Source: Eledone cirrhosa
Lineage: Eukaryota
Assembly: GCA_964016885.1 (NCBI GenBank)
Contig: OZ024740.1
Coordinates: 64,604,001 to 64,668,000 of the forward strand
Direction of reading: 5' to 3'
DNA: 64,000 nt
A model generated the notes under the pieces. It was not told the DNA's origin. It did not search any database and saw nothing but the letters and a program-made list of their open reading frames with translations. Below, one piece after another: positions 6,777-57,020 of the stretch. Made by a program: the position numbers and the translations under genes. Every line of letters begins with the position of its first letter. Within the stretch, counting starts at the first letter, position 1.

Positions 6777-6956
6777 GGATTGGCAGTATCAGTAGAGCGT
6801 CAGACACCATGCTTTGCGGCATGGAGTTACGTCCCTTTACATTCTGAGTTCAAATCCCGCCGAGGTTAACTTTGCCTTTCATACTTATGGGGTCGATAAA
6901 ATAAAGTACCAGTAATGCACTGGTTAAGGGCTGGCCTTGTGCCAAACGTAGAAACA
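6777..6956 (+). mobile_element. tRNA-derived SINE (Meta/Sauria-like central domain) with 15-bp TSD
   Basis: A-box TGGCAGTATCAGT, B-box GAGTTCAAATC, and GCCTTTCAT..GGGGTCGATAAAATAAAGTACCAG. TSD ATTATTACTGAAGCG at 6762-6776 and 6957-6971. Confidence 0.85.
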
Positions 6957-7177
6957 ATTATTACTGAAGCGTCAAGATATCTACCAATGAATGAGCCCGA
7001 CTGAAATATACTTTACACAAAAGCGCAGATCCTTAATTTATAGAGCACAGATTGTCATGATATCCTAGTCAAAATTGGAAAAAATGTATTGTAGCGAATA
7101 ACATGCCGAATAGAATGAAACCTTTACCATCACACTTTTAACTTCATCCCTTACCCTCTACAGATGAATCTCTATCT

Positions 7178-9581: not shown

Positions 9582-9845
9582 GTTTGTGTATGTATATATG
9601 TCTATAACTATTGCACTGTGTGAAATCTACTAGCTATTGAGCATCGATTCGAATAGTTTAACGGCCAATATGCAGATCAATAAAGAGGCGTAGGCTTGAA
9701 GCGCAAATTTGAGAAGCGTATGACAAAGAATATATATACATATATGTATATATATGTATATATATATACACATATATATATATATATCCGAACAGTTCGA
9801 ATCTAGCTGTCGAGGCTGTCGGGGCCCTGAGTCTTTTCATATATA

Positions 9846-11066
9846 TACCACGATGGATCTTACTGGATCAACAAGAAATCTCAGACCCCATTTGACGTTA
9901 GCATGGGAGCGAGTGACTCGGCTGAAATTAGCGACCTTGTGGGCTTGTACATCCTACATCAACTGAATAACCTCTTTACTGGCCTAACCGGAGGTTTATA
10001 CCGAGACGACGGCCTCTTCACCCTGCAGAGAGTTAACCCCAGAACTACCGATGGGTTTCGGAAAAACTTAAGCTCTTTCTTCTCTAGTCTAGGATTTAGT
10101 ATAACTATCGAATCTAATTTGACTAGGACCAACTTCTTAGATGTCACTTTCGACCTAGATACTTCCCTCTATTACCCGTACCACAAACCTAACGAGTCCC
10201 TTAGATATATTAACGTTAATTTAAACCATCCCCAAAACATCACTGATAACCTAGTAAAAAGCGTCTCTATTAGAATATCTGGCCTCTCCGCCAACAAAGA
10301 TATTTTTAACGCATCTGCCTCCTACTACAATGACGCCCTCGCCCGCAGCGGATTTAAAGAAAAGATTACATACCTAGAAACCACCGCAAGATTGCAGAGG
10401 AGGAATAGACATAGGCAGATTAGCTGGTACAACCCTCCCTTCAATAGAGAGGTCTCTACACCGATAGCTAGGATTTTCTTCACTTTGCTGAAATTACGCT
10501 TCCCCATACAACATAGGTACCACACCATCTTTAATAAGAACACAATAAGACTCTCCTACTCCACCACACCTAACCTAGCTAGGAATATAGCCAACCACAA
10601 TTCTAAAATATTAAATAAGCTAACCACCTCCGAACCCAATCCCCGGACTGGGGCGCTGTGTAATTGCTTAAATAAGGAAGCATGCCCACTTGAAAACAAA
10701 TGCCTCACAAATGATATCGTATACAAATGCGATGTCATCTCAGGCACCGATGATTGCAAAACAACTTACATCGGCATGACCTCCAACAATTTTAAGACCC
10801 GTTGGTAAGCCCATACCCACTCCTTCAGAAGACCGGACGAATCAAACCAGACAACACTCGCCTCCTATGTTTGGGACCTCAAAAGGAACTCAACCCCCTT
10901 CACGCTTAAATGGAAAATACTCCAGAAAGCGCGCTCTTACAACGGAGGGCACAAGGGCTGCGACCTTTGTATCTCAGAGAGCTACGAAATTTTATTCGCC
11001 AAGGGCCCGCTACTGAACAAACTCTCTGAACACTGCCCGAACTGCATGCACTTTAAAACACTTTAA
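9846..11066 (+). pseudogene. Penelope-like element 1 (Naiad-like): 5'-truncated RT + GIY-YIG endonuclease, one in-frame stop
   Basis: PFDVSMGASDSAEISDLVGLY, GLYRDDGL, NFLDVTFDL, CNCLNKEACPLENKC linker, IVY...YIGMT..FKTRW. After the TAA at 10806-10808 the frame continues (TTLASYVWDLK..CDLCISE..CMHFKTL*) to 11066. Confidence 0.92.
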
Positions 11067-12137: not shown

Positions 12138-13793
12138 AATGAGAGGTAGAGAAATTGTTTTAGCGAGAAGCTAATAGTATTCTATAACATATATGCGACT
12201 ATAACGTCAAGATGGGAAAAGTAGTTAACGTAAGATTTAGGAAAAATAATTCAAACTCATCTCAAAAGAGAATCAGGATACAAATTCATCCACAGAATTT
12301 AGTGAAATCCAAGGAAAAATCAATAGACCTTTAGCTCATAATAAAATAAAGTTTAAAACACTTATCCTTCAATTTGGAATAACATCAAATGCTCTGTATA
12401 GTCTTAAAAGACTATTTCATGAAAACTTTTAGTGGAGATGGTCACGGTTGGATTTCAATCGTCAGCAGAGCTCAACAGAAACCAGGGCTCTCACAGTATT
12501 ATAATCCGAAAAAGGGAATTCTAAAACTGGCTAGTTCGCCATCATGTGTTATTATGAAAAAGCACATTAGAAAAAACGGGGCTAGTGACGTCAGGATGAA
12601 AGTGAATGTTTATTTACAAGAAATAGCAGTCAAATACATTCTGAAAAAAACTCTACAAAAGGAGTTCAGCAAATAGCAATAATTATCACAGTTTTTATTA
12701 AAAAAAAAAAAAAAATTTTTTTAAACCGGGATTAGTCACAGATAGTTTAAGCACTCTAGGAAAAGAATCCGAGTATAAGTATAAATGAGAGGCATAGAGA
12801 TTGTTTTAGCGAGAAGCTAACAGTATTATATAACATATATGCGACTATAACGTCAAGATGGGAAAAGTAGTTAACGTAAGATTTAGGAAAAATAATTCAA
12901 ACTCATCTCAAAAGAGAATCAGGATACAAATTCACAGAATTTAGTGAAATCCAGGGAAAAATCAATAGACCTTTAACTCATAATAAAATAAAGTTTAAAA
13001 CACTTATCCTTCAATTTGGAATAACATCATATGCTCTGTATAGTCTTAAAAGACTATTTCATGAAAACTTTCAGTGGAGATGGTCACGGTTGGATTTCAA
13101 TCGTCAGCAGAGCTCAACAGAAAGCAGGGCTCTCACAGTATTATAATCCGAAAAAGGGGATTCTAAAACTGGCTAGTTCGCCATCATGTGTTATTATGAA
13201 AAAGCACATGAGGAAAAACGGGGCTAGTGACGTCAGGATGAAAGTGAATGTTTATTTACAAGAAATAGCAGTTAAATACATTCTGAAAAAAACTCTACAA
13301 AAGGAGTTCAGCAAATAGCAATAATTATCACAGTTTTTATTAAAAAAAAAAAAAATTTTTTTTAAACCGGGATTAGTCACAGATAGTTTAAGCACTCTAG
13401 GAAAAGAATCCGAGTATAAGTATAAATGAGAGGTATAGAGATTGTTTTAGCGAGAAGCTAATAGTATTCTATAACATATATGTGACTATAACGTCAAGAT
13501 GGGAAAAGTAGCTAACGTAAGATTTAGGAAAAATAATTCAAACTCATCTCAAAAGAGAATCAGGATACAAATTCACAGAATTTAGTGAAATCCAGGGAAA
13601 AATCAATAGACCTTTAACTCATAATAAAATAAAGTTTAAAACACTTATCCTTCAATTTGGAATAACATCAAATGCTCTGTATAGTCTTAAAAGACTATTT
13701 CATGAAAACTTTCAGAGGAGATGGTCACGGTTGGATTTCAATCGTCAGCAGAGCTCAACAGAAACCAGGGCTCTCACAGTATTATAATCCGAA
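12137..13793 (-). repeat. Tandem array H1: ~2.6 x ~641-bp units, one HHR per unit
   Basis: Units start at ~12137, 12783 and 13423. Flanked by (TA)n on the left and (TG)n/(TA)n on the right. Confidence 0.95.
12391..12471 (-). ncRNA. Type I hammerhead ribozyme H1 (also 13033-13113, 13674-13754)
   Basis: Minus strand: GCTCTG-CTGACGA-TTGAAA..TTTCAT-GAAA-TAGTC-ttttaa-GACTA-TA-CAGAGC. All three stems pair. Confidence 0.88.
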
Positions 13794-13830
13794 ATGTATG
13801 TGTGTGTGTGTATATACATGTGTGTGTGTG

Positions 13831-13879
<49 letters not shown>

Positions 13880-13881
<2 letters not shown>

Positions 13882-15048
13882 GAAAAAAGTTTGTCCTTCA
13901 TCAGTGATCTTCCAACCATCATAGGCATTTCATCGCTTTAAAGACCATATACCTCCGGTTGGTGCGAGCAACGGCTAAAAAAAGTCGTTGGGACACGAGG
14001 GTAAACACACGTAAAAGTCGTTGGGACGCGAGGGTAAACAAACAAAATGGTGAAGCAACAGAAAGTGAGGAAGAAGGAGACAAGTCCCAAATTTCTATGA
14101 ATTTAAATTCGGTGAAATCGTGAACGAGAGAATAAAGACCATCAAACCTGGTTGAAATGTGAGCATGAAGGAATTTCGCACAGGTCTAACGGGAGGAAGA
14201 AGGGGTCTGGTCTGCGAATTCGGTAAACATAAGTTCTGTGAAATCGTAGACGAGAGAGAGAAAAAATTCTGACCAGCTTGGCCGAGCGTTCGAGAGAAAA
14301 GAATTGCGCACTGGTCAAATGGGAAGAAAAAGGAGGAGGAGAGGTAGTGACAGAGAATGAGTGAGTGAAGGGTAAGGAAGAGGCTAACAGAGAAAGAGAG
14401 ACTGCTAGAAACGTTAAAGATACATAGAACGAAAAAGTCGGGTAGCAGCAGAGGAAAAAAATGTGTAAATATGATAATAAGGGCGCTGCGGAGTTGCAAA
14501 TGGGTTACATATGAAAAAAGTTTGTCCTTCATCAGTGATCTTCCAACCATCATAGGCATTTCATCGCTTTAAAGACCATATACCTCCGGTTGGTGCGAGC
14601 AACGGCTAAAAAAAGTCGTTGGGACACGTAAATATAGGGGACGCGAGGGTAAACAAACAAAATGGTGAAGCAACAGAAAGTGAGGAAGAAGGAGACAAGT
14701 CCCAAATTTCTATGAATTTAAATTCGGTGAAATCGTGAACGAGAGAATAAATACCATCAAACCTGGTTGAAATGTGAGCAAGGGAGGAATTTCGCACAGG
14801 TCTAACGGGAGGAGGAAGGGGTCTGGTCTGCGAATTCGGTAAACATAAGTTCTGTGAAATCGTAGACGAGAGAGAAAAAATTCCGACCAGCTTGGCCGAG
14901 TGTGCGAGAGAAAAAATTGCGCACAGATCAAACGGGAAGAAAGAGGAGGAGGAGAGGTAGTGACAGAGAATGAGTGAGTGAAGGGTGAGGAAGAGGCTAA
15001 CAGAGAGAGAGACTGCTAGAAAGGGTAAAGATACATAGAACGAAAAAG
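13880..15048 (-). repeat. Tandem duplication H2 (~631-bp unit, ~1.8 copies); relative at 46224-46772
   Basis: ATGAAAAAAGTTTGTCCTTCATCAG at 13880 and 14511; flanked by (TA)n. Confidence 0.9.
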
Positions 15049-15747: not shown

Positions 15748-15792
<45 letters not shown>

Positions 15793-15810
15793 GTGTATGT
15801 GGGTGTATCT
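15048..15810. repeat. Compound (TA)n/(TG)n microsatellite
   Basis: Direct reading. Confidence 0.97.
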
Positions 15811-16268
15811 ATGGGTGCGCGCGAGTGTGTGAGTGAGTGTGTTTTGTGAATGTGTCTGTTGATTTTGGCATATAGTTGAATAGTTTAAGAGAAATTTGAG
15901 GACAATTGTAAGATCTGCACTCAATATTTTGAATTTGTCTACAGAATTCTAAACCTTTGTCACTTAGTAAAGAATTAGCTTTTAAAGAATCTCCCTTTTC
16001 TTTAAATCTATCTACCATGACTGACCCCCACTGATTTTATAGACACCTGTTAGCTCAAGAGAAACTTAATAAGGATTGGCATGCCATCCTGAACCTGTTT
16101 ATAGAATTCTTTCTGCCTTTGTTACTCTAAAAATAAAAATAAACTATAGCTTTGTAGAATTAGCTTTTAATGAATTCTATCAACCAATGACCTACACCCA
16201 TCCCACTCCCCCACCCTCTTTTACCACTTGCAGAGACCTATATATACGATACTTATTTTTTGATACCC

Positions 16269-16319
16269 AGATTCCTGATGATTTCTAATGAATGAAACAG
16301 TTCTAGTCCTGTAGAATCT
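16269..16319 (+). ncRNA. Type I hammerhead H3 (second copy on minus strand at 48926-48976)
   Basis: AGATTC-CTGATGA-TTTCtaatGAAT-GAAA-CAGttctagtcCTG-TA-GAATCT, inside a dispersed repeat (15810-16350 / 48895-49275). Confidence 0.88.
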
Positions 16320-16346
16320 CATCTATATTAAAACTTTTATACTCTG

Positions 16347-16387
<41 letters not shown>

Positions 16388-17040: not shown

Positions 17041-17527
17041 TCCTGGAATTACATATGGAACATTTCAAACAATAGAACGAGATGTTTAATGTACACTTGT
17101 AAAATATAAATACGTGTTTTTTTTAAAGCAATGTCTGTTATTTCCTAAATATAATTCCACTTTCCATATTGATCGACATTTATAGACAGTATTCAAAGTA
17201 ACTAATAATGTCTGCCAAATAAATAATGGTTTCAAACCTATATTTAATTATCTACCAGCAACGTTCTTATTTATTTCACTTTCAGCTATAACTAAATAAA
17301 TTTCAATAACTTTTATTTTCAATTTGTCAGTTTTCTCATTTTTCGATAATTTAAAATAATGTCCCGTGGCCTTAAAAGTTGTCATTTGCGGTTTTATGGC
17401 TATGATCTACTATACACACAGAATACATTATACTAATGCATAAAAAGACTAAGGCATATGTAAAAGAATGAAGAAAGTAACAAAATAAAAAAACTAAAAG
17501 TACATATAATATGAAAGCAATCATACA

Positions 17528-17712
17528 ATTGTTTCTACTTTTGGCACAAGGCCAGCAATTACCCAGTGCATTACTGGTATTTTATTTTATCGACCCCGTA
17601 AGGATGTAAAGCAAAGTTAACCTCGGCGGGATTTGAACTCAGAATGGCAAGGGCCGTAACTCTGCATCAAAGAATGGCGTCCGACCCTCGACCGATACTG
17701 CCAATCCACCGC
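17528..17712 (-). mobile_element. Same tRNA-SINE family
   Basis: Reverse complement matches the 6777-6956 copy. Confidence 0.85.
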
Positions 17713-18110
17713 AAACATATAATGTTACATAGTAATGTAAAACGTGATAAATAATCAATAATATAACATAGAGCAATATAGTATACGTACAACTACATAT
17801 GTGGCACATTGTATGTGGATGCATTTTAATGTGTAAAGGTGTAAAGTGTGATTTACAATGTTATCAATTAAGTTTTATATATTATATACATTATGATATA
17901 TATATATATATATTTCCTTGGAGATACGAAATATCTATACATATTGTAAAAAGCTATGCTTGAAGCGAAATCCTATTTCTTTTTTATTATAAGTTGAGCC
18001 AACTTATGCAGCTTCATATGCAAATGAGATTAATCACCTCATTTACACAGACGAGAAAAGTATATTTTCTCGCCTGTCTTCTAGTCCAGTAGTCGCAAGC
18101 GGTGGGAGGG

Positions 18111-18154
18111 ACCGTCCTGACGAAGGCCAGTTAAGCCTGAAATGCATAGACGGT
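18111..18154 (+). ncRNA. Minimal type I hammerhead H4 (minus copy 19779-19822; deleted copy ~20077-20107)
   Basis: ACCGTC-CTGACGA-AGGCcagttaaGCCT-GAAA-TGCA-TA-GACGGT. Palindromic stem III. Lies in a ~329-bp repeat unit (17915-18310, 19625-20320). Confidence 0.9.
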
Positions 18155-18305
18155 TGTCCCCCTTGCTTCTGCTGGACATCACCAGAGGGCGTTAGCCCCC
18201 CCCCCCCGGTGGTTGCATAGCTACGGCTTCCTAAAACACTATCTCCTTGGAATTACGAAATGTTTATACATATTGTATACGCTATGCTTGAAGCGAAATC
18301 CTATT

Positions 18306-18348
<43 letters not shown>

Positions 18349-18576: not shown

Positions 18577-18611
<35 letters not shown>

Positions 18612-18613
<2 letters not shown>

Positions 18614-19607
18614 ACTGAACAAAAAAGTAAAACGAACACAGAGATATGCATGTATGCGTTCAAATCGTAATGGACCAGAAACGCTAAGGTGAAAAAAATA
18701 CTAACAAGACAATAGGGTTTGCTAGACTCAATTTAAGAATAAATCAAGAAAAATAAATACAAACCAGTATTGTGGTAACTACCATTCACCCGGACAGTTT
18801 TTGATGGAACCGTTTCGCAATATTATTTGCGAAGAGGTATATCAAATTCTTGGCTCATCAGCGGGTGAAGAATTAGTTTCCTGATCACTTCTAAATAAAA
18901 TAAAGAACTGGATAGTGTGTGTATATGTAGTGCACATGGTTTCCAAACTTAGCGCGTCGCGCAGACTCACGTCACTAAAAATAGAGGCCGGCTCTACACG
19001 ACAATTGAAATAGCTCTACGAATTAACGGAGCCGAATGTACTGTAATGAGACTATTTTGAGTTTCTAACTCAATACATGCTTTTGATATATTAGGCTCCG
19101 TTAATTCGTAGAGCTATTTCAATTGTCGTGTAGACTCGGCCTCTATCTTTAGTGACGTGAGTCTGCGCGACGCGCTAAGTTTGGAAACCATGTGCGTTAC
19201 ATATACACACACTATCCAGTTCTTTATTTTATTTAGAAGTGATCAGGAAACTAATTCTTCACCCGCTGATGAGCCAAGAATTTGATATACCCCTTCGCAA
19301 ATAATATTGCGAAACGGTTCCATCAAAAAACGTCCGGGTGAATGGTAGTTACCACAATACTGGTTTGTATTTATTTTTCTTGATTTATTCTTAAATTGAG
19401 TCTAACAAACCCTATTGATTTGTTAGTATTTTTTTTCACCTTAGAGTTACTGGTCCATTACAATTTGAACGCATACATGCATATATCTGTGATCATTTTA
19501 CTTTTTTGTTCAGTTATACTATATGGATCGGAAAAACCTTTTTCCTAGAGCTAATTTTACTGTAATGAGACTATTTTGAGTATCTAACTCAATACATGCT
19601 TTTGATA
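18612..19607. repeat. Fold-back element H5: ~420-bp inverted arms; plus copy is a 519-bp unit plus ~50-nt redundancy
   Basis: 18612-19034 is the reverse complement of 19094-19517. The central spacer (from 19039) recurs at 19558-19607. Confidence 0.9.
18785..18869 (-). ncRNA. Type I hammerhead H5 (plus copy 19258-19342; mutated relative 22672-22754, minus)
   Basis: TTCACCCG-CTGATGA-GC..GC-GAAA-CGGTTccatcaaaAACTG-TC-CGGGTGAA with a perfect 8-bp stem I. Confidence 0.88.
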
Positions 19608-20524
19608 TATATATATATATATATGAAATAAGATTGTGCTTCAAGCATAGCTTTATACAATATGTATAAAAATTTCGTATTTTTAAAGAAATACGGTTTT
19701 AGGAAGCCGTGGCTATGTAAACACTGGGGAGAGAGGGCTAACGCCCTCTGGTGATGTCCAGCAGAAGCAATGGGCACAACCGTCTATGCATTTCAGGTTT
19801 GACTGGCCTTCGTCAGGACGATTCTCCTCCCCGCTTGCGACTGCTGGACTTGAAAGCAGCCGAGAATATATAGTTTTCTCGTCTGGTCAAATGACGTAAT
19901 TAATCTCATTTGCATATGAAGCTGCATTAGTTGGCTCAACTTATAATAGAAAAGAATAAGATTTCGCTTCAAGCATAGCTTTATACAATATGTATAGAAA
20001 GTTCGTACTTCTAAAGAAATACGGCTTTAGGAAGCCGTTGCTATGTAAGCACCGGGGGCTAACGTCCTCTGGCAGTGTCCTGACGAAGGCCAGTCAAGCA
20101 TAGACGGTTGTCTCCCTAACTTTTGCTGGACACCACCAGAGGTCGTTAGCCCTCCGGTGATTACATAGCTACGGCTTCCTAAAACTGTATTTCTTTAGAA
20201 ATACGAAATTTCTATACGTATTGTATAAAGCTATGCTTGAAGCGAAATCTTATTTCTTTTCTATTATAAGTTGAGCCAACTTATGCAGCGTCATAAGAAA
20301 ATGAGATTAATCACCTTATTTGCGAAAGCCAGATGGTTTTTTATATAGTGTCAAATCTCTTTCGTTACACATTCTGAAATTTCTAATAAATTGAAGTGAA
20401 AACGGGAGGTGCGTGTGTTTTTATTGGCAGCATGACCCTCCCAAAGTATAACAATATCTGTTTCAACACATGTTTTCAGATAAGACATCTTGCAAAACAA
20501 ATTCAAAAACGAAGTACGCCCCCC

Positions 20525-22424: not shown

Positions 22425-22428
<4 letters not shown>

Positions 22429-23016
22429 GTTAAAAACTCAGCGTAGTCTCTTACAATTAAATAGTTCTAAGAAAAAAGCTTTTCCGAGCCGTATAATATA
22501 ATTGAATAAACAAGAGAGATGAACACTAATATAAACATACATGTGTTCGAATCGTAAAGACTAGGTTTGCTAGGGTGAAAAAATACTAACTACAGCAATA
22601 TGGTTTGTTAGACTTAATTTTAAGTAGTAGATCAAGAAAAATAACAGACCTATATCGGGCAATTACCTGGTAACAACTAGGCAGTATTGGAAACTGTTCC
22701 GCAACATCTTATTAAGCGAAGTGAACACTGTTTCTCTGCTCATCAGTAGTTGTTGAAAAATTAGCGATCCTTCCACTTCTAAAAATATTAGAGGACTGAA
22801 TTGTGTACGATATGAATTAGTGCACGTGTTTTCGGAACCCAGCTTGTCTCGAAATCCTACGGCGCTAAAAATAACAGGTCTGTTATTTTTCTTGATTTAC
22901 TACTTAAAAGTAAGTCTGACAAACCTGTAGTTAGTATTTTTTCACCCTAGCAAACCTACTCCTTACGATTCGAACGCATGTATGTTTATATTAGTGTTCA
23001 TCTTTCTTGTTTATAC

Positions 23017-23020
<4 letters not shown>
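22425..23020. repeat. H5-related element with partial inverted duplication
   Basis: 22500-22650 recurs inverted at 22878-23020; homologous to 18612-19607. Confidence 0.8.
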
Positions 23021-25796: not shown

Positions 25797-27091
25797 TTAT
25801 GGAGGATAAGTATCTGAAAGTGTGTTAAGTTTAAATGAGCTGGAAAGCAGGTGTGATTTCATGTGTGGGCAACTGGTGAAAATTTCTGTCTTTGTGTTCA
25901 GGCAGGTCTTTGGTGATTTTAGATTTTGCAATATCCAATATTTTTCATTTATGCAGAGCGTGCATTTTCTTGTTCCTCTAGCATATTTTTAAGATTGGTT
26001 CAAAATTGACCAGTCTAATTTATATTGGATGCCTTGGTCTTTCAAATCCCAAATTCTGCTAGCCAGAGCTGTTGTAAATCTTTTTTCTGGATGTCAAAAG
26101 GATGCGACATGTGAGTAATAACGCGTTTTGAATTTGTCTTGCGTCATACCCACATATCGTTCACTGGTGGCTGGATGGTTGTTGCTGATGGTTGTCACTT
26201 TAGCCGCATATACAATGGCTTTGGTGTTGCATTTACCTTGTAATGGGCATTCACTTTTGATTCTACAGGAGCAAGTTTGATTTTCTCTAGCTGATAATTT
26301 GTTGAGGATATAGGACTTAATAGGGGAACCGCAGGAATAGCTAATTTTAACACAGTTTCTGTTAAAGATCTTATAGTATCTATGTGTTCTAGGGAAATGT
26401 TTATCTAGGAGATCAAGGAATTTTTTGCCTACATTAGTTTTAACTGCTAGAGAGTAGGGGGGTGTGAACCAGATTATTTTTCTTTTCCTATTTTTATGTT
26501 TAATAGAGTTAGTATAGTTAGGTATGTATTTAATCGGTTCGCTAAAACCGCTATTTAGGAGGGCTTTATTATAGTAGGGGGATGCCTTATTAAAAATAGC
26601 TTCTGAGGAAGAGAGGGTGGAGATCCTACGGCTAATATTAGGGATAAGGTTTTTAAAAACTATAGGTGGATGGCAAGATCCTTTATTTATATATTTTAAG
26701 TTTTCATTAGGTTTATGGTATGGTTTATAAGAAGCAGTAGGCACATCTAGGTTTATATCTAGGAAATCTACGTTGGAAAGGTTAGTGTCAATAGTAATTT
26801 TAAGATTAAAACTAGCGAAGGTTTTTATTAAGTCTTTCCTTAATCTATCTAAGTTATGACCTATGGTGGTATGGGAAAGTATTAGACCATCGTCGCGATA
26901 AAGCCCCAAAATATGGTTAGGAAATTTTTCTTTAAGTGTATGTAAGAGGAATAGGCCGACCAGATCACAAACATCGGCACTGTCATAAGAGCCCATTGAG
27001 ACATCGAATGGGTTCTCTGGGTTAGATATTTTTACCCAAGTGTCATTATCATTAAAATTAAAAAGTAGAGTGTTCCTAGCATGCAAGATGA
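25797..27091 (-). pseudogene. Penelope-like element 2 (Naiad-like): 5'-truncated RT + GIY-YIG, two in-frame stops
   Basis: PFDVSMGSYDSADVCDLVGLF, GLYRDDGL, CSCRIKSECPLQGKC, IVY...YVGMT..FKTRY. The frame continues past TGA (26094) and one TAA through CTLCINEK..SCPHM to the stop at 25797. Confidence 0.92.
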
Positions 27092-27438: not shown

Positions 27439-27582
27439 AAGACTAAATGTTACATAACACCTATAACAATAAACTCACTAAAGTTTACACCTCGTGCGTT
27501 GAAAGTCATATGCGGTGCGAGTGGTTATGCTAGAAATAATAGCCTATTTACACTCATTTTTATAAGCTGAACAGATATATAT

Positions 27583-29171
27583 ATCACGATACATTAACGG
27601 AGCCATAGACGCTCGTCATTCCCTGTAAATAATGTGCTCAAAGGAGAGGAAATCCTGAGCTCTTTAAAATACAATATGTTGAAAAGGTAACACACTAGAG
27701 AGAGATACAGTTGGCTATCAATAAAACAGGGAAAAACCACCAGTGTATGAAATCTATAACCTATGAAAGGCAGAGTATAAACACGATAATTAAAAATATA
27801 AATGAAAGCGTAAATAAATACCTCTATAACTATATAACACACGTACAAATCCAAAGTGATCTGTTTGGCCAGTAAGGTGTTGACAGAAATGAAATAACCC
27901 CCGTTCATCAGCGTGTGTAAGGCTATACATTTCAGACAACACTAAGAGAATTTATAAAGCGACCGTCCAGCTACACGTGGGAGAGATAAGTCACAGCGTG
28001 TTTAAGGGTAGTGAACCAGTGGCCTCTGAGGGACGAGCTGCTAGAAGGGCAGCCCAAAACCACTCAGAGAAGTGTGCTCAACCAAACAGAGAGAGAGAGG
28101 AAAGACTGTTATAAGGAGCGAAATATCACGATACATTAACGGAGCCATAGACCCTCAACATTCCTTGTAAATAATGTGCTCAAAGCAGAAGAAATCCTGA
28201 GCTCTTTAAAATACAATATGTTGAAAAGGTAACACACTAGAAAGAGATACAGTGCGCTATCAATAAAACTGGGAAAAACCACCAGTGTATGGAATCTATA
28301 ACCTATGAAAGGCAAAGTATACACACGATAACTAAAAATATAAATTAAAGCGTAATTAAATACCTCTATAACTATATAACACACTTACAAATCCACATGC
28401 TGATGAACCGTGGTTATTTCATTTCTGTCAACAACTTACTGGCGAAACAGATCACTTTGGATTTGTACGTGTGATATATAGTTATAGAGATATTTATTTA
28501 CGCTTTAATTTATATTTTTAATTATCGTGTGTATACTCTGCCTTTCATAGGTTATAGATTCCATACACTGGTGGTTTTTTCCCAGTTTTATTGATAGCGC
28601 ACTGTATCTCACTCTAGTGTGTTACCTTTTCAACATATTGTATTTTAAAGAGCTCAGGATTTCCTCTCCTTTGCGCACATTATTTACAGGGAATGACGAG
28701 GGTCTATGGCTCCGTTAATGTATCGTGATATTTCGCTCCTTATAACAGTCTGTCCTCTCTCTCTGTTTGGTTGAGCACATTTCTCTGAGTGGTTTTGGGC
28801 TGTCCTTTCTAGTAGCTCGTCCCTCAGAGGCCACTGGTTCACTGCCCTTAAACACGGTGTGAGTTCTCTCTCCCACGTGTAGCTGGACGGTCGCTTTAAA
28901 AATTCTCTTAGTGTTGTCTGAAATAGCCTTACACACGCTGATGAACCGGGGTTATTTCATTTCTGGCAAAAACTTACTGGCGAAACAGATCACTTTGGAT
29001 TTGTACGTGTGTTATATAGTTATAGAGGTATTTATTTACGTTTTAATTTATATTTTTAATTATCGTATGTATACTCTGCCTTTCATAGGTTATAGATTCC
29101 ATACACTGGTGGTTTTTCCCTGTTTTATTGATAGCGCACTGTATCTCTCTCTAGTGTGTTACCTTTTCAAC

Positions 29172-29177
<6 letters not shown>
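27583..29177. repeat. Inverted tandem array H12 (~540-bp unit; ~1.5 copies minus, then ~1.5 copies plus)
   Basis: Period 542 bp (27594 vs 28136) and 538 bp (28400 vs 28938). Orientation flips at ~28394. Confidence 0.92.
28931..29012 (+). ncRNA. Type I hammerhead H12 (also 28394-28473 plus; 27837-27918 minus with GAAA>CAAA)
   Basis: ACACACG-CTGATGA-aCCGG..CTGGc-GAAA-CAGATCactttgGATTTG-TA-CGTGTGT. Confidence 0.87.
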
Positions 29178-31630: not shown

Positions 31631-31879
31631 CCTGTGTTCATGTTTACATACATACATACAAACAACGTGATTTTACAAACATATGTTTCTTCAAATAGGT
31701 CATTAGGCATGTGTGTGGACTAATTTACGACTGTGCATGGTAAATTGTATACACAATATCAAATGTCATGTGTAAGTAATATATACAATGGGATATAAAA
31801 ATCAATTCACGTAAAATGTGCGTGTGTGTATATATATATATATATATGTGTGTAATCTGAGTTTTTCGAATATCAATAA

Positions 31880-32066
31880 TTGTTTCTACTTTTCGCAAGG
31901 CCAGCAATTATACCAGTGTATTACTGGTACTTTATTTTATCGACCTCGTAAAGATGAAAGGCAAAGTTAACCTTGGCGCGATTTGAACTCAGATCACAAA
32001 GGGCCGTAACTCTTTGCTACAAAGCATGGCGTCCGATCCTCTACCGATACTGCCAATCCACCGCCT
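31880..32066 (-). mobile_element. Same tRNA-SINE family, ~16-bp TSD
   Basis: Reverse-complement match; TTTCGAATATYAATAA flanks both sides. Confidence 0.85.
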
Positions 32067-33067: not shown

Positions 33068-33407
33068 ATAATATATAAGAACAAAAGATGGTTAAAAGAG
33101 TTCCATGTATTTTATTATGGGCATTTCAAAAACAAATATCATCATGCAATAATATTTGCGTTTTCATCAGATAAAACAGGAAGACATGATATGAAGGTTA
33201 AAAAACACTTGTGGATAGTGCAGTTTTAAATCAACATATGTTGATTTAAAACTGCACTATCCACAAGTGTTTTTTAACCTTCATATCATGCCTTCCTGTT
33301 TTATCTGATGAAAACGCAAATATTATTGCATGATGATATTTGTTTTTGAAATGCGCATAATAAAATACATGGAACTCTTTTAACCATCTTTTGTTCTTAT
33401 ATATTAT
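33068..33407. repeat. Near-perfect spacerless palindrome (~170-bp arms) centred on CATATG
   Basis: Axis at 33237/33238; each arm carries H13. Confidence 0.93.
33297..33367 (+). ncRNA. Type I hammerhead H13 (mirror copy 33108-33178 minus; truncated copy ~29628-29685)
   Basis: TGTTTTAT-CTGATGA-AAACGCAAATATTA..TGATATTTGTTTTT-GAAA-TGCGCA-TA-ATAAAATA. Confidence 0.88.
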
Positions 33408-33551
33408 GTATACTCCAGTCCTACAAACTGTAGAGTGCTTCTTATCCGATATCTGCATTGCTTTATTGTACTACAATAAAACTCACCTCCTATATATATA
33501 TATATATATATATATAGTTAAAAGAATAGAGGTGTAACACACAAGTTATTA

Positions 33552-33948
33552 TATATTGGTAAACGGAATAGAAAATGCTGACAAATTGTTCACAGTTGAA
33601 AAATGGTTTAATTAGGAATAAAAGAGTATTAGTAATTGTATGGGTTAGTATTCAGTTGTGGTTTTAAGTTTTTAAGTTTTTACCGGTTGCGCATTTCTAA
33701 ATGCTTTTCAAAAATAATTTTGAGATAGAGTGTCCGTGTTGTTTGCTCTGATCAGATCAGAGCAAACAACACGGACACTCTATCTCAAAATTATTTTTGA
33801 AAAGCATTTAGAAATGCGCAACCGGTAAAAACTTAAAAACTTAAAACCACAACTGAATACTAACCCATACAATTACTAATACTCTTTTTTTCCTAATTAA
33901 ACCATTTTTCAACTGTGAACAATTTGTCAGCATTTTCTATTCCGTTTA

Positions 33949-33956
<8 letters not shown>
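33552..33956. repeat. Near-perfect palindrome (~200-bp arms, 1-nt spacer)
   Basis: GCTCTGATC-A-GATCAGAGC with axis at 33754. The arm is related to 29205-29325. Confidence 0.93.
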
Positions 33957-33982
<26 letters not shown>

Positions 33983-34062
33983 TATTGAAGTTTCCGTTGA
34001 TAATTGAAAAAGTCATAGGAGTGAAGAGTGCTCTATGTAAGTACCAGAGCTAAATTTAATGT

Positions 34063-34245
34063 ATAATAAACAATACAATATAATTACCTCATTACCAGAG
34101 GTTTCCCGAATAAGATGAATACGAAAAACGTCCTCATTCGTTCATCTGACATTGCCTTGTCCGATGAACGAATGATGACGTCGGTTTTCGTATTCGTCTT
34201 AATCGGGAAACCTCTGGTAATGAGGTAATTATATTGTATTGTTTG

Positions 34246-34323: not shown

Positions 34324-34332
<9 letters not shown>

Positions 34333-34756
34333 TAAAAAAATAATGAATAAAACAATGAAACAGTTCCTTATATTAAACAAAAAAAGTTCATTATTTAACG
34401 ATCGTTTCTAGGATATATATGTGTTAGAATTGGCATGCATATTCAACAGATCTATGTACAAAATTATACAAAATTATACAAACTATCAAAATTAAATATA
34501 CATACCAAACACATATATATGCCGTCTTCAGAAATAATTTTTTATTTCTGAAGACGGCATATATATGTGTTTGGTATGTATATTTAATTTTGATAGTTTG
34601 TATAATTTTGTATAATTTTGTACATAGATCTGTTGAATATGCATGCCAATTCTAACACATATATATCCTAGAAACGATCGTTAAATAATGAACTTTTTTT
34701 GTTTAATATAAGGAACTGTTTCATTGTTTTATTCATTATTTTTTTAAATATTTTAT
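34324..34756. repeat. Near-perfect palindrome (~210-bp arms, 4-nt spacer) carrying H14
   Basis: CTTCAGAAATAA-TTTT-TTATTTCTGAAG with axis at ~34539. Confidence 0.93.
34542..34688 (+). ncRNA. Type I hammerhead H14 with long stem II insertion (mirror copy 34391-34537 minus)
   Basis: TTATTT-CTGAAGA-cGGcATATATATGTGTT..AACACATATATATCCta-GAAA-CGATCG-TT-AAATAA. Confidence 0.78.
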
Positions 34757-35231: not shown

Positions 35232-38200
35232 CTACAGGATGGTATACAGAGAAGGCCCATTTACACGAGCCATTCTCGCCACTATCACCCACCTTTCATA
35301 AAACTGCCTGTGGCCAAGCACCTCTCTCTCCATTCTTATCCTTCTTCCGAAGTGATATCGGAAGAAGTAGACCAGACTATGGCCAGAGAGGAAGTTGCCT
35401 GACCTCAGACCTTTCAATCGTGTCCACCAAACAACCTCTTTCAACATGGCTATTACGCACAGAAAAACCGCCTTTGCTTCCTTTGTGAAGAGGGGAGGCG
35501 GTTTGATTGTCATCACGGACTCGGCGGTCAATTTAATCGGCGCCACCCGCGACAGCAGTTGTTCGGCGTAGCCCCACAGATCAACCACGCCCGGACATTG
35601 CACCAATGCGTGCGCAACGGTTTCTTCGTGACGCACGCATCTAGGGCAAATCTTTTTTGAGGGATCCCTGCCCGGGCGCCCGTGTCTGTAGAGCCTCTCT
35701 CGAACGGGTAGAGCCCCCCGGTAGCACTGCCAGGCCAGTGACTTCTGGAAGTTGTCCATTGGTCCTGGGCCGAAAGTCCTATCGAACAGGCTGGCCAGTT
35801 CGTCTTCTTCCATGTCCAGCGACGCTCCAAGGGTGTCATCGCCCCTGCTAGCCACCAGCCCTCTATAGAATGATGAGGTGGATTCTCCACCGATGGCCTG
35901 GCCCGCTTGCCAGAGAGCCCTGAGCACCTGAGCACACTCAGTGTGCCAGTCTCCCAGTTTTCCGGATCTTTGCTTGACCCAGGACTGTAGCTCGGTGAGC
36001 GAGACGAGTCTCGGAAAGGCTCGTTTCACGAACGGAGCCCACACCGGTTGACCAGTGAGGAATACCTGTAAGTGCCGTAGCCTTAATGCGTGCCTACGAA
36101 TCATCAACCACGGCATCCCCAGCCCTTCTTTCGAAGGTTGTTGGCAGCAGATGGATCTTCTCACCATAGGAGGGCGCTTCTTCCAAAGAAATTGGAAGAG
36201 CATGCGTTCCATGGTGGTGAGTGTTTCCTTAGGGCAAGGCACGACAGTCAGGCGGTAGTAAGTGACGGACGCTATGTAAATGTTCGCCACCTCCGCCCGG
36301 CCTTTTAGGGACAGCTTACACTTGGTCCATTTCTGGGTTAGTGCAAACACCTTGTTCGTAACCTCGTTCCAGTTCTTTTCCACCTGGAGGTCCGGTCCAA
36401 ACCAGACCCCAAGCAACTTTACCGGGCCCTCCGTCCAGTGTCCGACGACACCGTCAGGAGGCATCGGTCTGCCTCTCCACGTTCCGAGTTGCAGCCCGAT
36501 GGATTTTTCCCGGTTCAGTTTCGCTCCTGACAACCTTTCGTACTCCTCCAGTAAGGTACCGATCGCCTCGATCTCCGAGTCGGTCGATACCATTACTGTT
36601 ACGTCATCGGCGTAGGCCGACACCGCTTTGCTCAATCCTGTTTCCAGGGGGATACCCTGCAACAACTCCAACTTCCTCAGTAAAGGCTCGAGAGTCAATA
36701 CGTACAGAAGGGAGGAGAGAGGGCACCCCTGTCGAATGGATCGTGTGATTTCGAACGGCTTCGAAAGGTAGCCGTTCACCTTGATCCTAGAACAGATGTG
36801 GTTGCTATGTAAGGCAGTGATCCAGCCTCTGAAAACAGGACCGAACCCAGCCGCCGCTAGCACCGCATCCAGGTAACCATGGTCGACCCTATCGAAGGCC
36901 TTAGACTGATCCAAGTTGATCAGGGCCCCACCAAAGCCGGGTTTGTTGCCAACCCTCTCTATGATGTATCGCATGAGGTGGAGGTTATCGTGAATGGACC
37001 TGGATGGGATAGCACATGTCTGCGCATCTCCCACCAGGCCACCCACGACAAGCGCCAACCTCTTTGCTAACACCTTGGCCAAAATCTTTAACTCTGTGTT
37101 TAGCAGGGTTATGGGCCGAAAATTATTTATACTATCTCCCTTGTTCTCGTCCTTCCTCACCAGCGTGACTACGCCCTTAGCTACTGAACAAGGAATTCTC
37201 CCGTTCTGCTGCCAATTGCAGTAGACCGCTTCGAGGAGTTCGGAGAAGAAGACCGGCATTGCTAAATAAAGTTCGTAAGGTATACCATTGAGACCTGGAG
37301 ATTTGCGTCTGCTGCATTGGCTCAACGCATCTCCGATCTCATCAGTCGAGATTGGTCCCTCGCAGGACTCTGCCTCTTCGCTCGAGAGACGCGGCAGGCC
37401 GTCGAGGTATGGACCGAAATCCACGCCCCCGCCCGGACCCCCGCCTCCCCCGAACAATCGGGCAAAGTGTCTTTGAAAGGCCTCGTACATCTGCTTAGGC
37501 TCCCGGATCACCCGTCCATCTTCGTCTTGCAACGACCGGATGGTGGATCGATTTCCACTCTTAGCTTCTGTCACGCGGGCCCAGCCAACGGCTTTGGCCC
37601 CCTCATTACCTAGAGCACGTATTTTACTTCGAATGACGCAGCCTTTGTGCTTTGCATCGAAAAACTGGTTCAAGGCCGTCCTCGATGCCAGCACTCTGGC
37701 CACATCTTCGCTCTTGATTGCCTCTTCTAATTTACCTGTTAATTCTTTCTCGTTTCTATTCCTATCGGCAGCTAACATCTTGCTATAACTTATTGATTCT
37801 GTTCTAATCTCTCTTTTGAGAGATGCCCACCATCGGTTGTTGACGATTGCACCCGTCAACCTCTCCTTAACTAATCTGCTAATCCGGTTTCTGTAAGTCT
37901 CTTTTGCCGGTAAAGACAAATTAAGTTTCCAGTAACCGGGGCCCTGTTTATGTGTTTTCTCGAGATTGACTACGCAGGTCACTAATTTGTGATCCGTGTA
38001 GCCAACCGTGCGCATTTCTGGACAGCTTAATATGTCCCTATACTTACTTCTAATTAAGAATCTATCTAAGTACGATCTAGATTGACCACTGTGGTTTCTC
38101 CAAGTCCAGGTAGGCACAGTTGGAAAATCTACTCGATATCTATCGACCAAGTTAAAACGGTCGAGTAACCCCTTGAGGCTGTTACACCCCCCTCTATTAG

Positions 38201-38669
38201 GACATGCTCCTGCATAGTCCCAACGTACATCTAGGATGTCATTCCAATCCCCCGCTAGAAGCAGGGAACGCGACGTTCCCAGAAAAGTCTCCAAACGCTG
38301 GAAGAAGTCGGGCCGTTCAGCTCCGAAAGGGGAGTAGACGGCGACCAGTCTCAAGGCCGTACTTTCACTACTGCCAACGTCTAGCACCAACAAACAACCC
38401 TCCGGGTCCGAGTGCACAACCTGTACGGCAAGACCCAGGTGTTTTTGCAGCAGTACGACAACCCCACCCCCACCTCCAGGTTGACAGAGAGATGCATGCA
38501 CCTCAAAGTCATCGAAGGTGGGGGCCAGCTGCCGCACGACGCTGATTCGAGTCTCACAGATAACCATTACATTTATACTACATGACCTGAGGTCATTTAG
38601 AAGCTTTGCTTGCTTCCAAGTTGAGCCCAGGCCACGTGCATTCAAACATCCTACTCTTAACACATCCAT
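35232..38669 (-). CDS. LINE ORF2: APE endonuclease + reverse transcriptase + C-terminal zinc finger, intact, 1145 aa
   Basis: APE motifs CLNARGL, ICETR, LAGDWN, SYLDRFL, TDHK. RT motifs KSPGLNG, FRPITLLN, DQSKAFDRV, QGCPLS, YADD. C-terminal CPRC..ETVAHALVQC. Confidence 0.96.
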   Translation of the reverse strand: MDVLRVGCLNARGLGSTWKQAKLLNDLRSCSINVMVICETRISVVRQLAPTFDDFEVHASLCQPGGGGGVVVLLQKHLGLAVQVVHSDPEGCLLVLDVGSSESTALRLVAVYSPFGAERPDFFQRLETFLGTSRSLLLAGDWNDILDVRWDYAGACPNRGGCNSLKGLLDRFNLVDRYRVDFPTVPTWTWRNHSGQSRSYLDRFLIRSKYRDILSCPEMRTVGYTDHKLVTCVVNLEKTHKQGPGYWKLNLSLPAKETYRNRISRLVKERLTGAIVNNRWWASLKREIRTESISYSKMLAADRNRNEKELTGKLEEAIKSEDVARVLASRTALNQFFDAKHKGCVIRSKIRALGNEGAKAVGWARVTEAKSGNRSTIRSLQDEDGRVIREPKQMYEAFQRHFARLFGGGGGPGGGVDFGPYLDGLPRLSSEEAESCEGPISTDEIGDALSQCSRRKSPGLNGIPYELYLAMPVFFSELLEAVYCNWQQNGRIPCSVAKGVVTLVRKDENKGDSINNFRPITLLNTELKILAKVLAKRLALVVGGLVGDAQTCAIPSRSIHDNLHLMRYIIERVGNKPGFGGALINLDQSKAFDRVDHGYLDAVLAAAGFGPVFRGWITALHSNHICSRIKVNGYLSKPFEITRSIRQGCPLSSLLYVLTLEPLLRKLELLQGIPLETGLSKAVSAYADDVTVMVSTDSEIEAIGTLLEEYERLSGAKLNREKSIGLQLGTWRGRPMPPDGVVGHWTEGPVKLLGVWFGPDLQVEKNWNEVTNKVFALTQKWTKCKLSLKGRAEVANIYIASVTYYRLTVVPCPKETLTTMERMLFQFLWKKRPPMVRRSICCQQPSKEGLGMPWLMIRRHALRLRHLQVFLTGQPVWAPFVKRAFPRLVSLTELQSWVKQRSGKLGDWHTECAQVLRALWQAGQAIGGESTSSFYRGLVASRGDDTLGASLDMEEDELASLFDRTFGPGPMDNFQKSLAWQCYRGALPVRERLYRHGRPGRDPSKKICPRCVRHEETVAHALVQCPGVVDLWGYAEQLLSRVAPIKLTAESVMTIKPPPLFTKEAKAVFLCVIAMLKEVVWWTRLKGLRSGNFLSGHSLVYFFRYHFGRRIRMEREVLGHRQFYERWVIVARMARVNGPSLYTIL

Positions 38670-53322: not shown

Positions 53323-56041
53323 CACCTTTCTAGTGGGTCCGGGTATGATTTTACATTCATTTAAATTATTGACGTATTGTTTTATTGATTTTTTTATCTG
53401 TTTGGCCCGAATCTTCCTTTATCGATTTTAAATCGTATGGTTGATTGTAGACTTGTTCTATATGTGACGGTATTTTAACGATAGTTATAGCTCTGATTCA
53501 TCTGAATTATTGAGCCCTCTGCCGCTCATATCGAATTTCGTTTATCGTGAACTCGTGCGCCGATTTTTCGATACTCGATCTTTCTAATATATTTAGCTCT
53601 GGACTTAGCTATCCACCAGTTAATTTTATTGCTCATTTTTTGTCGATTCTATTGAGTGATGAATAGCTTTTGTTTTATTTTAACATGTCTATTGAGCACT
53701 CTAATTCGATATGTGTATTTCCACACTCACTCGAATTGTTTTCGCGGATATAGGGGTCATCTCCCTTGTCTAATGCCATGTGCGTTTTTCACCGCTAGTT
53801 GACTCCTCTGCCGCCAGGAAAAAACTCGTTGACAACGTAAACTCCGTTCCACTTATTCTAGTAGGCTTCTATATTTATATGTGAGCTGATAGAGTACAGT
53901 CTAAGGATTTACAGAAACCCATGAAGCTAGATTTAACACCTTTCTAGTGGGTCCGGGTATGATTTTACATTCATTTAAATTATTGACGTATTGTTTTATT
54001 GATATTTTTTATCTGTTTGGCCCGAATCTTCCTTTATCGATTTTAAATCGTATGGTTGATTGTAGACTTGTTCTATATGTGACGGTATTTTAACGATAGT
54101 TATAGCTCTGATTCATCTGAATTATTGAGCCCTCTGCCGCTCATATCGAATTTCGTTTATCGTGAACTCGTGCGCCGATTTTTCGATACTCGATCTTTCT
54201 AATATATTTAGCTCTGGACTTAGCTATCCACCAGTTAATTTTATTGCTCATTTTTTGTCGATTCTATTGAGTGATGAATAGCTTTTGTTTTATTTTAACA
54301 TGTCTATTGAGCACTCTAATTCGATATGTGTATTTCCACATTCACTCGAATTGTTTTCGCGGATATAGGGGTCATCTCCCTTGTCTAATGCCATGTGCGT
54401 TTTTCACCGCTAGTTGACTCCTCTGCCGCCAGGAAAAAACTCGTTGACAACGTAAACTCCGTTCCACTTATTCTAGTAGGCTTCTATATTTATATGTGAG
54501 CTGATAGAGTACAGTCTAAGGATTTACAGAAACCCATGAAGCTAGATTTAACACCTTTCTAGTGGGTCCGGGTATGATTTTACATTCATTTAAATTATTG
54601 ACGTATTGTTTTATTGAAATTTTTTTATCTGTTTGGCCCGAATCTTCCTTTATCGATTTTAAATCGTATGGTTGATTGTAGACTTGTTCTATATGTGACG
54701 GTATTTTAACGATAGTTATAGCTCTGATTCATCTGAATTATTGAGCCCTCTGCCGCTCATATCGAATTTCGTTTATCGTGAACTCGTGCGCCGATTTTTC
54801 GATACTCGATCTTTCTAATATATTTAGCTCTGGACTTAGCTATCCACCAGTTAATTTTATTGCTCATTTTTTGTCGATTCTATTGAGTGATGAATAGCTT
54901 TTGTTTTATTTTAACATGTCTATTGAGCACTCTAATTCGATATGTGTATTTCCACATTCACTCGAATTGTTTTCGCGGATATAGGGGTCATCTCCCTTGT
55001 CTAATGCCATGTGCGTTTTTCACCGCTAGTTGACTCCTCTGCCGCCAGGAAAAAACTCGTTGACAACGTAAACTCCGTTCCACTTATTCTAGTAGGCTTC
55101 TATATTTATATGTGAGCTGATAGAGTACAGTCTAAGGATTTACAGAAACCCATGAAGCTAGATTTAACACCTTTCTAGTGGGTCCGGGTATGATTTTACA
55201 TTCATTTAAATTATTGACGTATTGTTTTATTGATATTTTTTATCTGTTTGGCCCGAATCTTCCTTTATCGATTTTAAATCGTATGGTTGATTGTAGACTT
55301 GTTCTATATGTGACGGTATTTTAACGATAGTTATAGCTCTGATTCATCTGAATTATTGAGCCCTCTGCCGCTCATATCGAATTTCGTTTATCGTGAACTC
55401 GTGCGCCGATTTTTCGATACTCGATCTTTCTAATATATTTAGCTCTGGACTTAGCTATCCACCAGTTAATTTTATTGCTCATTTTTTGTCGATTCTATTG
55501 AGTGATGAATAGCTTTTGTTTTATTTTAACATGTCTATTGAGCACTCTAATTCGATATGTGTATTTCCACATTCACTCGAATTGTTTTCGCGGATATAGG
55601 GGTCATCTCCCTTGTCTAATGCCATGTGCGTTTTTCACCGCTAGTTGACTCCTCTGCCGCCAGGAAAAAACTCGTTGACAACGTAAACTCCGTTCCACTT
55701 ATTCTAGTAGGCTTCTATATTTATATGTGAGCTGATAGAGTACAGTCTAAGGATTTACAGAAACCCATGAAGCTAGATTTAACACCTTTCTAGTGGGTCC
55801 GGGTATGATTTTACATTCATTTAAATTATTGACGTATTGTTTTATTGATATTTTTTATCTGTTTGGCCCGAATCTTCCTTTATCGATTTTAAATCGTATG
55901 GTTGATTGTAGACTTGTTCTATATGTGACGGTATTTTAACGATAGTTATAGCTCTGATTCATCTGAATTATTGAGCCCTCTGCCGCTCATATCGAATTTC
56001 GTTTATCGTGAACTCGTGCGCCGATTTTTCGATACTCGATC

Positions 56042-56052
<11 letters not shown>
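53321..56052 (+). repeat. Highly homogeneous tandem array H17 (~615-bp unit, ~4.4 copies) between two (TA)n tracts
   Basis: AACACCTTTCTAGTGGGTCC at 53321, 53935, 54550, 55166 and 55781. Confidence 0.97.
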
Positions 56053-56684: not shown

Positions 56685-56867
56685 GGGCGGTGAATTAGCA
56701 GTATTGGTAGAGGGTCAGACATGTTTTCCAGCGTAGTTACATCCCTTTACGATCTGAGTTCAAATCCCGCCGAGGTTAACTTTGCCTATCATCCTTACGA
56801 GATCGATAAAATAAAGTACCAGTAATGTATTGGGTATTTGCTGGCCTTGTGCCAAAAGTAGAAACAA
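56685..56867 (+). mobile_element. Same tRNA-SINE family, 12-bp TSD
   Basis: Direct match; TTATCATCTTAA at 56673-56684 and 56868-56879. Confidence 0.85.
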
Positions 56868-57020
56868 TTATCATCTTAACGTAACCATCAATTATTCCTC
56901 GCCAAAACGTGCACTGGCTGTATGTATAAAGTTTTACTGAGTGTTGCAGCACCTGCGTTCTAAATAACGACAGACGCATGGTATTTGTGTATGCATATTT
57001 GTATATTAAAGAGAGAGAGA

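Follow-up and report, generated by a model that had tools for sequence, protein, structure and literature searches.

The short non-coding repeats of the window (the whole stretch of 64,000 nucleotides of Eledone cirrhosa DNA that we analysed) are best explained as a nest of non-LTR retrozymes or non-autonomous Penelope-like elements (PLEs), a known kind of element. They consist of non-coding head-to-tail units of 330–640 bases, most with a predicted self-cleaving hammerhead, that were likely inserted into TA microsatellites by a PLE, probably one of the Hydra clade, and copied from a continuous RNA template, for which a circle is likelier than an uncut tandem. Three insertions of one unit plus a short overlap, on which the initial annotation was based, are a selection and represent few among many copy lengths.

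Structure of the elements with an overlap

The three insertions and their relatives are located as follows:

18610..19040, minus strand: left (short) arm of H5, inverted, 0.83 unit
19029..19040: fold-back junction of H5, imperfect GAGC-AAT microhomology
19039..19607, plus strand: right (long) arm of H5, one 519-nt unit plus 47–53 nt, 3’ end in (TA)n
19039..19091, plus strand: 5’ copy of the H5 overlap, the element’s own 3’-terminal segment
19558..19610, plus strand: 3’ copy of the H5 overlap, entering (TA)n with 6 nt of microhomology
19258..19343, plus strand: predicted type I hammerhead of H5, predicted cut after 19334
22426..23019: diverged relative of H5 (70%), likewise an inversion, sharing both end phases with H5
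17913..18310, plus strand: H4, a 329-nt unit plus ~68 nt, (TA)n on both sides
19625..20088, minus strand: second copy of the H4 family, 1.41 units, predicted cut after 19785
20077..20322, plus strand: inverted arm of the second H4 copy, 0.75 unit, not in (TA)n
46224..46771: 46224 element, flanked by (TA)n runs; one 512-nt unit and a further 36 nt; related to 13881–15048

All three overlaps that had been claimed were confirmed. In H5 positions 19039–19091 recur at 19558–19610 with 52/53 identical bases and an offset of 519; the overlap measures 47–53 nt, since its final 6 bases are common to the TA flank. In H4 positions 17915–17982 recur at 18244–18310 (68 columns, 90% identity, offset ~329), and in the 46224 element 46217–46260 recurs at 46729–46772 (43/44 identical, offset 512; 36/36 when the TA bases are left aside). 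The accompanying statement that all of them sit in (TA)n holds on both sides for H4 and the 46224 element. For the plus copy of H5 it holds at the 3’ end only, as its start is a fold-back junction; (TA)n is present on both sides only of the composite 18610–19607.

H5 is a head-to-head inversion in which 18610–19040 is the reverse complement of the long arm (417/438 identical) and the outer end of the short arm lies 85 nt short of the long arm’s end (the tail offset). At the junction the left side tracks the reverse complement of 19077–19103 and the right side tracks the unit phase 19543–19569, the microhomology being between unit phase 19548–19555 and the reverse complement of 19090–19098. The length of the H5 overlap is fixed by this junction. 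The second H4 copy ends at its 3’ side within 3 nt of the end of H4, and its inverted arm ends 65 nt past the end phase of the other arm.

The description of the template as lacking an ORF also stands, as neither H5 nor H4 contains an ATG-started frame of more than 34 aa. The 46224 element has one 83-aa ATG-started frame, located on a low-complexity strand. We found no protein coding within the short units, not even as an ORF remnant.

Hammerhead motifs and passage of the predicted cut sites

A descriptor of the type I hammerhead gave 19 matches in the window, compared to a mean of 0.04 and a maximum of 1 in 50 local shuffles. The matches include H4, H5 and five other families. The same descriptor found no type I hammerhead in the 46224, 13881 and 53322 families; since these share the architecture of the others, a ribozyme-made circle is not needed for all families. 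In Rfam the whole window gave 0 matches at the gathering score, and thus no hammerhead. At E≤10 the region 12000–34900 gave no hammerhead among the 150 of 184 matches listed, which were of the microRNA type or of other types and reflect chance similarity to palindromes and microsatellites.

The predicted hammerhead of H5 combines a strong stem I with a weak base of stem II, and its minimum-energy fold keeps stem I and loses the three-way junction. In most other H5 copies, as seen in reads and contigs, position 19330 is a C, which lengthens helix III. The inverted copy has its predicted cut after 18793 on the minus strand. In H4 the predicted hammerhead has a palindromic helix III and a cut after 18148 on the plus strand. 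Longer insertions of further families were found at three locations:

12138..13794, minus strand: array of 2.6 units, 641-nt unit, three predicted hammerheads
27581..29175: inverted pair with arms of ~1.5 units, unit ~540 nt, predicted hammerheads; used in the template-homogeneity test
53322..56048: array of 4.4 units, 615-nt unit, units 99.7% identical, no hammerhead match

The array at 53322–56048 is very young and is the best candidate for an active family. A hammerhead array of 2.8 units (49560–51076, unit ~505 nt) contains a (TA)n tract of variable length within each unit, so that target-like sequence forms part of the unit.

Tandem units with at least two full predicted hammerheads are present at 12138–13794, 28394–29175 and 49560–50993. 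Canonical hammerheads with a long helix III (up to 7–8 bp) occur in every unit of several families, and in such families reverse transcription (RT) crossed 2–3 predicted cut sites. In all 9 arms examined the 5’ end is located 74–304 nt upstream of the nearest predicted cut. We therefore rejected a linear cut monomer as the sole template.

Circular or uncut tandem template

If the template had been a heterogeneous linear array, the two terminal copies of a segment within an inverted insertion should share variants against the two upstream copies. Four copies in the inverted pair at 27581–29175, compared over 179 columns, differed by 16 private changes, with no two-versus-two site and one three-state site that adjoins an indel. 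In the H4 family (64 columns) three sites group by insertion and one by position, and the 4.4-unit array showed differences at 1/266 and 2/614 columns. Private-only, star-like changes within insertions indicate that each insertion was made from a homogeneous template. Together with the passage of the predicted cut in 9/9 arms this requires a circle or a concatemer, and on this point the initial annotation, which had proposed such a template, was correct. The homogeneity is explained by a circle and equally by a transcript of a young homogeneous array, and the overlap alone does not discriminate between a circle and an uncut tandem transcript. Circular folds of the units exceeded shuffled sequences in stability (z -1.6 to -8.3, with 15 shuffles for each); we did not count this in favour of a circle, because only 38–62% of the bases pair and the hammerhead hairpins contribute. 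Within our preferred reading a circle is mildly favoured, an uncut linear concatemer is clearly less likely, and template jumps between cut monomers are improbable.

More broadly, we consider it rather unlikely that no circle took part at all and that ordinary target-primed RT, truncating on the 5’ side, copied uncut linear tandem RNA, with arrays growing by template jumps or unequal exchange. Such a course would agree with the anole PLE, which according to the available parts of PMC11167929 uses unprocessed RNA in vitro and has no RNA-seq reads ending at its cut. It would also agree with the hammerhead-less families, which build the same structures, and with the H4 site that groups by position, as expected from a heterogeneous linear template; young arrays with 99.7% homogeneity would give star-like changes from a linear transcript as well. 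However, the retention of canonical hammerheads in every unit of several families, which RT nevertheless passed, argues against this course, as do subfamily variants that are present in both repeats of an insertion and point to a unit-length bottleneck somewhere in the lineage.

Fixed 3’ ends and TA microhomology

The 3’ ends of the elements are fixed at two sites 40–89 nt apart (the Penelope “tail”), while the 5’ ends vary. A common end phase was found in the window for the copy pairs H4/19625, 33490/29509, 33981/24380 and 16347/48898. In the inverted pairs (n = 8) the arms are offset by 85, 76, 89, 86, 40, 85, 60 and 65 nt, and head-to-head inversions centre on short hairpins or microhomologies. 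Microhomology with TA at the ends averages 2.95 nt at 20 of 24 ends (4 have no internal homologue). By chance 0.89 nt (random phase) or 1.54 nt (best phase) would be expected, and 0 of 20,000 draws reached 2.95. Without 4 related ends the value is 3.19 nt at 16 ends.

We compared the region 19030–20090, outside of which the 46224 element is located, with reads and contigs at 80% likeness. X1 and X2 are two contig sets from one sample and X8 is one RAD raw-read run under the same species label; X7, a run from another organism, gave 2 short pieces only and was of no evidential use. All counts of loose ends and joints refer to the best-supported ones, beyond which lie a further 779 loose ends and 22 joints. 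Among these best-supported cases, 555 X8 reads link 19048 to unit-internal sequence, the usual upstream neighbour of the H5 overlap, and an exit at 19091 into (AT)n is seen in 356 X8 reads, 38 contigs of X1 and 34 contigs of X2; 178 further X8 reads exit at 19090 with a mixed consensus. The inward connection at 19048 and the exit at 19091 show that the H5 overlap is the family’s own fixed 3’ end. A contig joint 19556->19039 was rejected as a special joint, as it represents ordinary unit-internal continuity. As a point against the passage of the cut, loose ends before 19332, 3 nt from the predicted cut of H5, were found in 16 and 18 contigs (agreement 0.6); they could represent subfamily variation or 5’ ends located at the cut. 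For other copies of H4 the reads contain at least 5 opposite-strand joints, at differing places.

The unit junction of H5 is crossed in other copies by 32 and 24 contigs (X1, X2) and by X8 reads, whose depth is 164 at 19093 compared to 734 at 19081 (~22%). By contig depth the crossing is 4% in X1 and 4% in X2. These ratios are biased by RAD sites (129 molecules end at 19106), by the likeness cut-off and by collapsed contigs and are therefore indicative only. Copies of more than one unit account for only a minority of the reads at the 3’ end of H5.

Candidate driver

Two remnants in the window encode the type of protein that could insert such elements:

9831..11066, plus strand: Penelope-like RT/GIY-YIG remnant of the Hydra type, 5’-truncated, with an in-frame stop; candidate kind of driver
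~25800..27089, minus strand: second Penelope-like RT/GIY-YIG remnant of the Hydra type, 5’-truncated, with stops

An ORF with RT and GIY-YIG is absent from the short units and is found only in these separate remnants. One of the two has 136 homologues among proteins of 581–2000 aa, the best at 62%; full-length homologues measure ~650–710 aa and contain RW(K/R) and DKT. On inspection the CxCx5C linker is present in both remnants, as are the motifs CxxC and CxH, with no CCHH inside GIY-YIG. Available parts of Craig et al. (2021, PMC8557442) give the same linker and the CxxC/CxH motifs for the Hydra clade, whose members bear hammerheads and insert in (TA)n. By these motif criteria the two ORF remnants are Hydra-clade PLEs. 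Pfam gave no family for the two remnants and nothing above the cut-off for four homologues, and a metagenome scan with one remnant revealed no related locus. Comparing the remnant flanks with the small elements we found only two weak matches, both to one unit (E 8e-4 and 9e-3). As no convincing sequence is shared between the Hydra remnants and the small elements, we infer the role of the driver.

A second alternative is that the units derive from autonomous PLEs, as pieces of their 3’ ends (pLTRs) or as products of internal deletion, and are not self-propagating non-autonomous families. The terminal segment of H5 is far deeper in the reads than the sequence after it, and truncated PLEs leave fixed 3’ ends and inversions, as described in parts of PMC8557442. 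We nevertheless regard this origin as improbable: the end of a unit runs straight into the start of a unit in H5, H4 and the arrays, the H5 junction is crossed at other loci as well, and the units contain no ORF remnant and do not match the two PLE remnants.

Copy length

In the initial annotation the three monomer-plus-overlap copies had been explained by RT running just over once around a unit-length template, with the short overlap as a signature of its circular or concatemeric nature. We analysed the arms of known period in the window (n = 15). Their span is 0.11–4.43 units, only 3/15 fall between 1.0 and 1.25 units (binomial p = 0.11 under an exponential fit), and the fractional parts of arm length are uniform (KS p = 0.99). 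The copies of H4 and H5 in the window cover 1.1–1.4 units only. For the relative at 22426 (519) and the array at 49560 (505) the periods used in this count are assumed or approximate, and the count excludes ten shorter elements of undefined period (33071, 33517, 33981, 34327, 15786, 48898, 21338, 24380, 29207 and 29509). Lengths are thus broadly spread, and we could not maintain a short overlap as a signature of the template.

That RT usually makes one turn of a unit-length circle and ends shortly beyond its starting point, with a monomer plus short overlap as the typical product, is very doubtful. Three such copies do exist (H5, H4 and 46224), the repeats within an insertion are homogeneous, and the 36-nt overlap of the 46224 element has the length of the classic tail, its right end lying near the phase where the related 13881 element ends (the alignment is approximate). 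However, neither the proportion of arms just above one unit nor the uniform fractional parts point to a typical length. If every H5 copy were a monomer plus overlap, half of the molecules (50%) should cross the unit junction, while the read and contig values given above, both biased, are lower, and the start of the H5 copy is a fold-back junction.

We rejected the reading of the overlaps as target-site duplications, which the initial annotation had set against its own explanation, and it is extremely unlikely that they are local tandem duplications or assembly artefacts: a region rich in microsatellites and inversions troubles assemblers and none of the contigs listed spans the whole stretch, but raw reads tie the H5 overlap to unit-internal sequence upstream (555) and to (TA)n at other loci (356), the repeats differ by 2–12%, unlike assembly duplicates, and a like pattern is found in many unrelated families of the window.

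Other repeats in the window

Four different palindromic insertions (33071–33490, 33517–33952, 33981–34244 and 34327–34753) are stacked in one (TA)n tract, with near-perfect fold-back centres in most. Two copies of another hammerhead family, 15786–16347 on the plus strand and 48898–49291 on the minus strand, both end 34 nt past the predicted cut and differ internally by a deletion or insertion.

The distantly related 46224 and 13881 families have in common a GAAA, 23 nt and CTGATGA (46283–46320 and 13895–13930 / 14526–14561, all on the minus strand), with a TGAT/ATCA hairpin just ahead of this core. This order matches a type II hammerhead, although both helix II and helix III are poor. From its sequence the core may be a permuted or degenerate ribozyme.

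At 35232–38702 and 39048–40136, on the minus strand, we noticed a stop-free frame of 1156 aa that encodes APE endonuclease, RT and zf-RVT, and upstream of it a zinc-knuckle frame; together they form a young LINE, presumably L1/Tx1-like. In addition, a SINE-like dispersed repeat of ~185 nt is present in six copies that are 83–95% identical:

6777–6962, 17527–17712, 31875–32064, 41732–41917, 42473–42534, 56687–56871: copies of the SINE-like repeat

Proposed mechanism of insertion

Under our preferred reading, a PLE-inserted copy of a continuous head-to-tail RNA, the PLE endonuclease would nick (TA)n and the nick would prime RT at one of two internal sites on the RNA, with a few TA base pairs helping. 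RT would then cover a variable distance and either join the other end of the target or fold back and copy its own cDNA. In H5 a small inverted repeat would flank the RT start site; the copy probably ended at one unit plus ~50 nt because the cDNA does not contain both halves of this repeat any earlier.

More tentatively, and with somewhat less than even confidence, we propose that Hydra-clade Penelope proteins are parasitised by at least eight unrelated non-coding RNA circles of 330–640 nt, of which some lack a canonical hammerhead. Each insertion would be a single rolling-circle cDNA, primed through TA base-pairing at either of two fixed sites ~85 nt apart, and fold-back would often complete it. 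If this is true, the variants in inverted multi-unit insertions are a direct genomic record of the proposed circular Penelope-type intermediate.

Comparison with known systems

The proposal of a circular template dates from 2014. Circles of retrozymes were demonstrated in 2020 in coral, mussel and axolotl, with PLEs named as likely mobilisers in the parts of Cervera & de la Pena (2020, PMC7229834) available to us. A preprint, likewise available in part, argues that retrozymes derive from PLE pLTRs (Li, Clavereau & Pollet 2026, 10.64898/2026.07.22.740005). According to these sources non-LTR retrozymes resemble the elements described here in their non-coding low-GC tandem units, their type I hammerhead and their range from monomers to multimers, and mobilisation by a PLE RT on circular RNA has been proposed for them. 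They measure ~170–400 nt with a GC content below 45%, compared to 329 nt in H4, 519 nt in H5 and 512–641 nt in several others, with a unit GC of 0.32–0.45 across our families. Their circles have been demonstrated, whereas our elements are known from DNA sequence and include families without a hammerhead match. The ends, tail, inversions and TA microhomology that we mapped were not found in the available parts of the two sources. Among titles and the starts of abstracts we found no mapping of the ends of such elements, and for octopus hammerhead ribozymes together with Penelope only Craig et al. (2021).

PLE insertions are described in the available parts of PMC8557442 and Arkhipova et al. (2013, PMC3846280) as partial tandems and inversions with palindromic junctions and a 30–40 bp tail, which parts of Frangieh et al. 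(2024, PMC11167929) tie to two internal RT start sites. The elements of the window agree with this in having two nearby fixed 3’ sites, a tail on one arm only, head-to-head inversions with palindrome or microhomology junctions, and AT-rich or (TA)n targets. They differ by the absence of an ORF and by the arm offset, which is mostly 76–89 nt (5/8) instead of 30–40 nt. In the anole PLE, following the same parts of PMC11167929, hammerhead cleavage is dispensable in vitro, uncut RNA is used and RT starts at a site without target homology, whereas our elements show TA microhomology.

With the Hydra-clade PLEs in the available parts of Craig et al. (2021) the remnants share motifs and (TA)n targeting; we found no cis sequence in common with the small elements. 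The non-autonomous Chlamys PLEs of the same source, such as MRC1, likewise have pLTR-like overlaps and multicopy head-to-tail insertions. Their 3’ end is like that of an autonomous partner and they mostly lack hammerheads, whereas no partner was found here.

How PLEs build insertions that are tandem or inverted is the question behind these comparisons, together with whether RT really uses retrozyme circles as its template. No element of a new class is present in the window. It nevertheless offers an unusually dense test bed, as it combines numerous families without an ORF, young arrays of several units, fold-back junctions and, in each family, two fixed end sites. The test for two-versus-two sites, applied here to one insertion, could separate circular from linear templates genome-wide and without bench work. 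Compared to the known systems, the local additions are longer units, longer tails, TA microhomology and a scalable genomic test of the template.
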